Shown one piece after another: positions 23,905 to 23,922 of a stretch of 64,000 nucleotides of DNA. The stretch comes from Escherichia coli. GTDB lineage: Bacteria; Pseudomonadota; Gammaproteobacteria; Enterobacterales; Enterobacteriaceae. Below the pieces are notes generated by a model. The model saw only the letters and a program-made list of their open reading frames with translations, ran no database searches and was not told where the DNA came from. The DNA is taken from NCBI RefSeq assembly GCF_003334765.1, contig NZ_QOWT01000001.1, one strand, 5' to 3'. Positions within the stretch are counted from its first letter, which is position 1. Each line of letters opens with the position of its first letter. The translations under genes were made by a program, and so were the position numbers.

Positions 23905-23922
23905 GCACTAGTTCTCTAGTAC
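23905..23922 (-). promoter_or_regulatory. TrpR operator of aroH
   Basis: Near-palindrome GCACTAGTTCTCTAGTAC with two CTAG cores; overlaps ppsR stop codon (23916-23918). Confidence 0.7.

Follow-up and report, generated by a model that had tools for sequence, protein, structure and literature searches.

The TrpR operator of aroH and the end of the ppsR reading frame in Escherichia coli

Results

Organization of the ppsR-aroH locus

The DNA analysed is a window of 64 kb (64,000 nucleotides) from Escherichia coli, in which the genes ppsR and aroH follow each other, with the minus strand as the sense strand for ppsR and aroH alike (Table 1). The ppsR stop codon TAG corresponds to CTA on the plus strand at 23916-23918. 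A near-palindrome with two CTAG cores had been described over this codon in the first-pass annotation, in agreement with the sequence and the coordinates of the open reading frames. The gap between the genes, which had been said to measure 156 bp and to contain the end of ppsR, is indeed 156 bp long up to the ATG of aroH (23760-23915), but by definition excludes the end of ppsR. What extends 7 bp into the upstream gene is the operator and, with it, the -35 region of the promoter P1.

Over 501 bp around the site the window displays 100% identity to E. coli K-12 MG1655, where the same stretch is annotated as ppsR followed by aroH, and among 5426 complete E. coli genomes, 5424 contain a match to this segment. 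In NC_000913.3, ppsR occupies 1787445-1788278 and aroH 1788435-1789481, and coordinates were converted according to K-12 = 1788278 + (23916 - window).

Table 1. Positions of genes, promoters and sequence elements at the ppsR-aroH locus within the 64-kb window.
Feature	Position	Strand	Basis and remarks
aroH CDS, 348 aa, Trp-sensitive DAHP synthase	22713..23759	-	NCBIfam AroH subfamily 701 bits (cut-off 463); RefSeq
P2 transcription start	23810..23811	-	K-12 1788384 (Kim et al. 2012) / 1788383 (SMRT-Cappable-seq); 51-52 nt before ATG
Promoter P2, TTGAAA (23840-23845), 16 bp spacer, TATCGT (23818-23823)	23818..23845	-	Consensus scan; sequence upstream of the Kim et al. 2012 start agrees
GC-rich perfect hairpin GCGAGGUGUGACACACCUCGC	23848..23868	-	-15.6 kcal/mol, z -3.5; +7 to +27 of the P1 transcript
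P1 transcription start	23874	-	K-12 NC_000913.3 1788320; SMRT-Cappable-seq operon table, supplementary file 4, PMC6131387
P1 extended -10, TGTTATCAT (-15 to -7)	23881..23889	-	Read from the sequence
T7 run in the P1 spacer (-21 to -15)	23889..23895	-	U tract after the operator hairpin in ppsR read-through RNA
Candidate second TrpR-like site, 8-bp shift, GAACTAGTGCATTAGCTT (9/12)	23897..23914	-	12-position scan; sequence match
TrpR operator of aroH, GTACTAGAGAACTAGTGC	23905..23922	-	-48 to -31 of promoter P1; 12/12 core positions
ppsR CDS, 277 aa	23916..24749	-	ORF list; NCBIfam PpsR 430.6 bits (cut-off 350); RefSeq
ppsR transcription start	24780	-	K-12 1787414, SMRT-Cappable-seq; origin of the listed ppsR-aroH co-transcript

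Sequence and geometry of the operator

The 18-mer at 23905-23922 reads GCACTAGTTCTCTAGTAC on the plus strand and GTACTAGAGAACTAGTGC on the minus strand. Seven of its 18 bases belong to the ppsR reading frame, stop codon included. These last 7 nt of the gene (23916-23922) comprise the G of Met276, TAC for Tyr277 and the stop codon TAG, and the final codons ATG TAC TAG thereby provide the left half-site. The palindrome is imperfect, with 6 of 9 possible pairs in the 18-mer and 10 pairs (one of them G-T) if three flanking bases on each side are included. No second copy of GCACTAGTTCTCTAGTAC was found in the 64-kb window at up to 3 mismatches, and 0 of 100 shuffled sequences matched. The tetranucleotide CTAG occurs 11 times in the window, compared to about 250 occurrences expected from base composition and about 47 expected from trinucleotide counts. 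The two CTAG of the operator, situated 8 bp apart, are the sole CTAG pair within 30 bp in the entire window.

For comparison with the 18-bp dyad GNACTAG-N4-CTAGTNC, sites were scored over 12 core positions (G.ACTAG....CTAGT.C). The aroH site matches at 12 of 12; elsewhere in the window none reaches 10 or 11, and 16 windows score 9. One of these 16 is the 8-bp-shifted site GAACTAGTGCATTAGCTT, with a third CTAG-like element, TTAG, at 23900-23903. The same scan was applied to the K-12 DNA upstream of the other TrpR targets named in the literature (PMC5343134). Here the top sites are GAACTAGTTAACTAGTAC before trpL (12/12), GTACTCGTGTACTGGTAC before mtr (10/12), GTACTCTTTAGCGAGTAC before trpR (9/12) and GTACTAGTTTGATGGTAT before aroL (9/12). 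The trp operator, too, has a neighbouring site shifted by 8 bp (10/12). The title of Kumamoto et al. 1987 agrees with 8-bp-shifted flanking sites at both trp and aroH.

Among these sites, trpO of the E. coli trp operon is most readily set beside the aroH operator, as both share the repressor, the 18-bp dyad, the spacing of 8 bp between the CTAG cores and the full score. However, trpO overlaps the -10 region of its own promoter, whereas the aroH operator is found at -48 to -31. In further contrast to trpO, the aroH operator extends over the stop codon of ppsR, and a second aroH promoter appears to escape it. The operators of trpR, mtr and aroL belong to the same motif family and lie upstream of each gene, but are weaker (9-10/12), with degenerate CTAG cores. 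Judged by its sequence, the site passes every test for a TrpR operator, and the complete score, in combination with the position at -48 to -31 of a mapped aroH start, bears out the first-pass proposal that it represents the TrpR operator of aroH.

Two mapped promoters upstream of aroH

Full-length primary transcripts determined by SMRT-Cappable-seq in M9 and rich medium (Yan et al. 2018; PMC6131387) define three units at the locus. Two of them consist of aroH (b1704) with transcription starts at 1788320 and 1788383, respectively, and the third, flagged as 'novel', comprises ppsR and aroH (b1703 and b1704) with a start at 1787414. The start at 1788320 defines P1. It is situated 7 nt downstream of the hexamer TATCAT (23886-23881), which is preceded by TG-N. 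The -35 element of P1 is poor (AGTGCA or TAGTGC, 2/6 by inspection). Because of this, P1 was missed in a generic scan of 23500-24300, which returned a single sigma-70-like promoter, namely the P2 pair TTGAAA-16-TATCGT at 23845-23818 on the minus strand. Relative to the P1 start, the stop codon of ppsR falls at -44 to -42. The mapped geometry of P1 agrees with the classical papers, which reportedly place the aroH operator in the -35 region.

An aroH promoter mapped elsewhere had been named in the first-pass annotation as the result that would speak against its reading. For P1 this is not what was found, as its start at 23874 places the operator at -48 to -31. The picture of a single aroH promoter is incomplete, since a second start, P2, is positioned 63-64 bp downstream of the P1 start.

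In M9 glucose, P2 was detected with 414 reads by exonuclease-enriched 5' RACE sequencing (Kim et al. 2012). It is the sole aroH start reported in that study, 51 nt before the ATG (window 23810). Taking this P2-only list as a refutation of the link between operator and promoter was considered and dropped, given that the study discards starts weaker than 50% of the strongest one and that the long-read start at 1788320 exists. P2 starts about 103 bp from the operator centre; at this distance TrpR bound to the operator should therefore be unable to occlude it. The existence of two mapped aroH starts fits the title of Hudson et al. 1991.

Transcription across the operator

The listing of a ppsR-aroH primary transcript implies that RNA polymerases do cross the operator. 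A ppsR-only unit is absent from the SMRT-Cappable-seq operon table, in which the ppsR-aroH unit is listed. The supply of such polymerases appears to be small. The ppsR starts recorded by Kim et al. 2012, at 1787415 and 1787420 (v3-converted coordinates), are represented by 8 and 7 reads, compared to 414 reads for aroH P2 and 420 reads for ppsA, which makes the ppsR promoter about 50 times weaker than P2 by read counts. Among the Term-seq ends listed by Adams 2021, none falls at 1788100-1788499, ppsR being weakly expressed. The same Term-seq study (Adams et al. 2021) lists an antisense 3' end inside ppsR at K-12 1787648 (-), corresponding to about 24546 (+) in the window, with a high score of 24585.7.

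The first-pass annotation had suggested that TrpR occupancy could influence the formation of ppsR 3' ends or read-through into aroH. In addition to occluding P1, TrpR bound to the operator might accordingly act as a Trp-dependent roadblock, which would either reduce read-through from ppsR into aroH or give rise to ppsR transcripts ending before the stop codon. The location of the operator within the listed ppsR-aroH transcript (start at 1787414) and directly on the stop codon of ppsR is in line with such a role, as is the lack of a ppsR-only unit in the operon table, and roadblocks formed by operator-bound repressors are a generally known and established mechanism, e.g. PurR at purB and LacI at O2. 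Like these sites, the aroH operator lies in a transcribed region and could meet an elongating polymerase. However, in contrast to PurR/purB and LacI/lacO2, its established role is at a promoter and the ppsR promoter upstream is weak. With 8 and 7 reads for the ppsR starts versus 414 for P2, read-through can add little to aroH, and none of the Term-seq ends listed falls at the operator, ppsR being weakly expressed. Moreover, TrpR-operator complexes are short-lived compared to those forming good roadblocks, and translation of ppsR as far as its stop codon would help the polymerase to pass. Finally, the overlap is dispensable, since the operator is detached from ppsR in two of the loci compared below and located elsewhere in Hafnia and Edwardsiella. 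A roadblock at this site is consequently regarded as distinctly unlikely. If it existed, the site would add a new, if modest, case in which a single operator controls two transcription units.

The same DNA was called in a terminator scan of the minus strand, which reported AATGTACTAGAGAACTAGTGCATT together with AGCTTATTTT. In RNA the palindrome could form a hairpin of -13.7 kcal/mol (z -3.95; 0 of 200 shuffled sequences as stable) directly followed by UUAUUUUUUU, and another E. coli lineage (L002) as well as Citrobacter youngae have a similar hairpin with a U-rich tail. Operator palindrome and U run might thus serve as a weak intrinsic terminator of ppsR at the RNA level, while the DNA also functions as operator and P1 spacer. 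However, the stem is rich in A and U, with 3 G-C among 10 counted pairs and an interior loop near its base, no corresponding 3' end is present among the Term-seq ends listed, and the long-read table is without a ppsR-only transcript. In E. albertii the operator hairpin is weaker (-7.4 kcal/mol), and in other genera it reaches only -4.5 to -8 kcal/mol or is followed by a tail that is not U-rich; any role in termination would therefore be recent and local. On balance, a terminator function is held to be unlikely.

Both effects could also be combined, with a TrpR roadblock and a weak hairpin-U-tract terminator in Escherichia and Citrobacter acting jointly, so that high Trp would cut read-through and yield ppsR mRNAs lacking a stop codon. 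This combination is judged very improbable. If true, the amount of the PEP synthetase regulator would be tied to Trp status, PEP being a substrate of AroH.

Conservation in Enterobacterales and constraint on the end of ppsR

A protein-anchored scan with one genome per species provided 80 aroH loci. The gene ppsR immediately precedes aroH in all Enterobacterales loci, but in 0 of the Vibrio, Photobacterium or Aeromonas loci. In 22 loci (21 taxa and this window) the operator starts exactly 4 nt ahead of the first base of the ppsR stop codon. The genera with this register include Escherichia, Citrobacter, Pseudocitrobacter, Enterobacter, Lelliottia, Pluralibacter, Cedecea, Siccibacter, Shimwellia and Mangrovibacter, and the majority of the in-register loci have the form GTAC TAA NNNN CTAGTAC. 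Most operator-bearing taxa have a -10-like hexamer in one and the same alignment column. No comparable operator was found in the sampled loci of Yersinia, Serratia, Rahnella, Rouxiella, Erwinia, Pantoea and Mixta, nor in those of Providencia, Proteus, Photorhabdus, Xenorhabdus and Arsenophonus. This absence agrees with a regulon reconstruction in which TrpR represses aroH and such control is limited to few close relatives of E. coli (PMC5343134). In a survey of CTAG sequences, the CTAG between aroH and ydiA is conserved in nearly all Salmonella lineages tabulated (PMC5337935).

In most of the order PpsR terminates with Arg-Arg-Met-Tyr or Arg-Arg-Met-Phe. Where the protein ends with Met-Tyr, the codons ATG TAC TAR therefore already spell the left half-site GTACTAR. 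In the 22 loci with an overlapping operator, the last sense codon is TAC without exception (22/22), and the stop codon is TAA in 16, TAG in 5 and TGA in 1. The 29 other loci have TAC (6), TAT (6), TTC (10) or TTT (7) as last codon and TGA (13), TAA (10) or TAG (6) as stop codon. Fisher tests on both codon contrasts give p-values of about 0.001 each, uncorrected for shared ancestry. The exclusive use of TAC and the near-absence of TGA make the synonymous choices at the end of ppsR look constrained by the operator.

The finding that a conserved PpsR C-terminus alone generates GTACTAR, also in taxa without a clear right half-site such as Rouxiella and Erwinia, raises the question whether the palindrome arose at the end of ppsR by chance and is irrelevant to regulation. 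Such a coincidence would have to account for a 12/12 site which is unique in 64 kb and contains the sole close pair of CTAG, for a register kept in 22 sampled loci with a -10 element at fixed distance, and for a position at -48 to -31 of a mapped start. It is next to inconceivable.

The overlap between operator and stop codon is not obligatory, because the operator is found apart from the stop codon in several loci. In Enterobacter sp. ENT03 (L014 2339-2356) it is located 20 nt past the ppsR stop codon and in one MAG (L033) 205 nt past it, and in both cases the distance of 141-144 nt to the aroH ATG is retained. Hafnia and Edwardsiella possess a GTACTAGTAAGAAAGTAC-like site 116-118 nt before the aroH ATG. 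In Budvicia a 9/12 site is present at the E. coli register (loci L023, L047 and L050 make up the Hafnia/Edwardsiella/Budvicia group). In Phytobacter massiliensis (L017) the ppsR frame is broken before the C-terminus; the ancestral end ...RRMY-stop and the operator are still present downstream.

Conservation of the P2 region extends over 46 Enterobacterales loci, some of them from taxa that lack the operator. The conserved elements are TTGAAW, TATYGT, GTGAT-N4-ATCAC, a short hairpin and a GAGA Shine-Dalgarno sequence. This taxon distribution, considered independently of a tree, suggests P2 as the older promoter, upstream of which operator and P1 would have been added later in Enterobacteriaceae. 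A deletion of about 30 bp takes out the P2 -35 region in Citrobacter youngae (L041).

Variation within E. coli and recoding of the stop codon

With a query of 76 bases around the site, 4831 E. coli genomes were matched, 2019 of which are identical. Eight natural and engineered variants were retrieved, and all natural ones retain the 12 core positions of the operator. The changes affect synonymous sites of ppsR, the central spacer (G to A) and the surroundings of the T run. In 15 E. coli genomes TAA replaces TAG as ppsR stop codon on a K-12-type background. Most of these appear to be natural isolates, e.g. O157:H16 Santai, and one is the prfA-less K-12 assembly considered below. TAA is also found in most other genera, and a perfect left CTAG is therefore apparently not essential.

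In the K-12 assembly NZ_CP025268.1 (L091) prfA is missing between hemA and prmC, and the change of the ppsR stop codon from TAG to TAA converts the left CTAG into CTAA. We interpret this assembly as a recoded, RF1-deleted strain. Strain B95.deltaA (L086, NZ_CP085842.1) carries GTACTGATCTGCTAGTGC at the operator. In both the prfA-less K-12 assembly and B95.deltaA, the replacement of the stop codon thus alters the left half-site of the operator as a side effect. In E. coli strain 8479 the annotation assigns the entire ydiV-selO-hemP-aroH-ppsR-ppsA segment to a 'plasmid', p8479-1 (L087, NZ_CP074995.1, 166 kb), which could reflect either misassembly or the capture of a large piece of chromosome.

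Further elements between P1 and aroH

The region between P1 and the aroH ATG contains additional conserved or structured elements. The GC-rich hairpin GCGAGGUGUGACACACCUCGC is without a U tract and lies directly upstream of the P2 -35 element. Its place is taken by another GC-rich palindrome in Enterobacter and Lelliottia, and by a CRP-like box in other genera.

A box resembling the CRP core, cGTGAT-GCGC-ATCACt (window 23805-23820), has its centre 2-3 bp ahead of the P2 start. In about 40 of 53 Enterobacterales loci TGTGAT-N4-ATCACT is found about 53 nt before the ATG, with both arms nearly invariant. E. coli and several Enterobacteriaceae carry a second CRP-like box (23847-23862 in the window), located about 42-54 bp further upstream. 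We know of no CRP control of aroH. A CRP ChIP-seq paper mentions aroH once (PMC4287617). An RNA hairpin as the main reading of GTGAT-N4-ATCAC was discarded, as its arms are almost invariant, with one double change in 46 sequences; the element looks more like a site for protein binding on DNA.

In addition, a short hairpin, CUUCC-CGGCA-GUCC-UGCCG-UA-GAAG (23782-23806, minus strand), begins 4 nt from the P2 5' end. Its inner stem displays double changes at 3 of 5 pairs among 46 loci (CGGT/ACCG, CGGC/GCCG), and it may be an mRNA-stabilising 5' stem-loop. An Rfam scan of 23650-24050 returned only a match at chance level (E = 7).

Discussion

Taken together, the palindrome at the end of ppsR is very probably the classical TrpR operator of aroH, which shuts off P1 and leaves P2 independent, its overlap with ppsR being a by-product of the way in which the operator arose. 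According to the proposed mechanism, Trp-loaded TrpR dimers would occupy the two CTAG-centred half-sites and probably also the flanking site shifted by 8 bp. Bound TrpR would block RNA polymerase at the -35 region, so that P1 is turned off. This occlusion step is suggested by the geometry of the site in combination with what is established for the action of TrpR at trp, trpR and aroH. P2, located outside of the operator, would supply a TrpR-independent basal level of aroH; the P2 start itself is mapped, and its distance from the operator argues for independence from TrpR.

With regard to the origin of this arrangement, Enterobacteriaceae would have gained the right half-site (CTAGTAC) and a -10 element just past the ppsR stop codon, upstream of the older P2. 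The operator overlaps ppsR because the codons for the Met-Tyr-stop end of PpsR (ATG TAC TAR) provide a ready-made left half-site, GTACTAR. An operator arising in a short spacer would thus have produced the overlap mainly as a by-product, and the overlap in turn would constrain the last codon and the stop codon of ppsR.

Regulatory sites extending over the ends of upstream coding sequences are found in compact bacterial genomes, and here as there codons double as a protein-binding site. Compared to such overlapping sites the aroH case is ordinary; the overlap comprises only 7 nt and requires no change in the protein sequence of PpsR. The operator is already known and part of the textbook, and its overlap with ppsR is a tidy but ordinary layout of a compact genome. 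The primary footprinting and mapping papers are those of Zurawski 1981, Grove and Gunsalus 1987, Kumamoto 1987, Klig 1988 and Hudson 1991. The findings have been published or follow directly from annotation and transcript maps that are publicly available. Small additions, which we have not seen stated, are the conserved register on Met-Tyr-stop and the constraint on the codons.

For the biology of aroH, the locus implies three inputs into its transcription, namely the TrpR-controlled promoter P1, the predicted operator-independent promoter P2 and read-through from ppsR. This three-input control is relevant to metabolic engineers tuning the expression of DAHP synthase. Moreover, as the stop codon of ppsR is part of the operator, recoding of the genome touches the operator as well.
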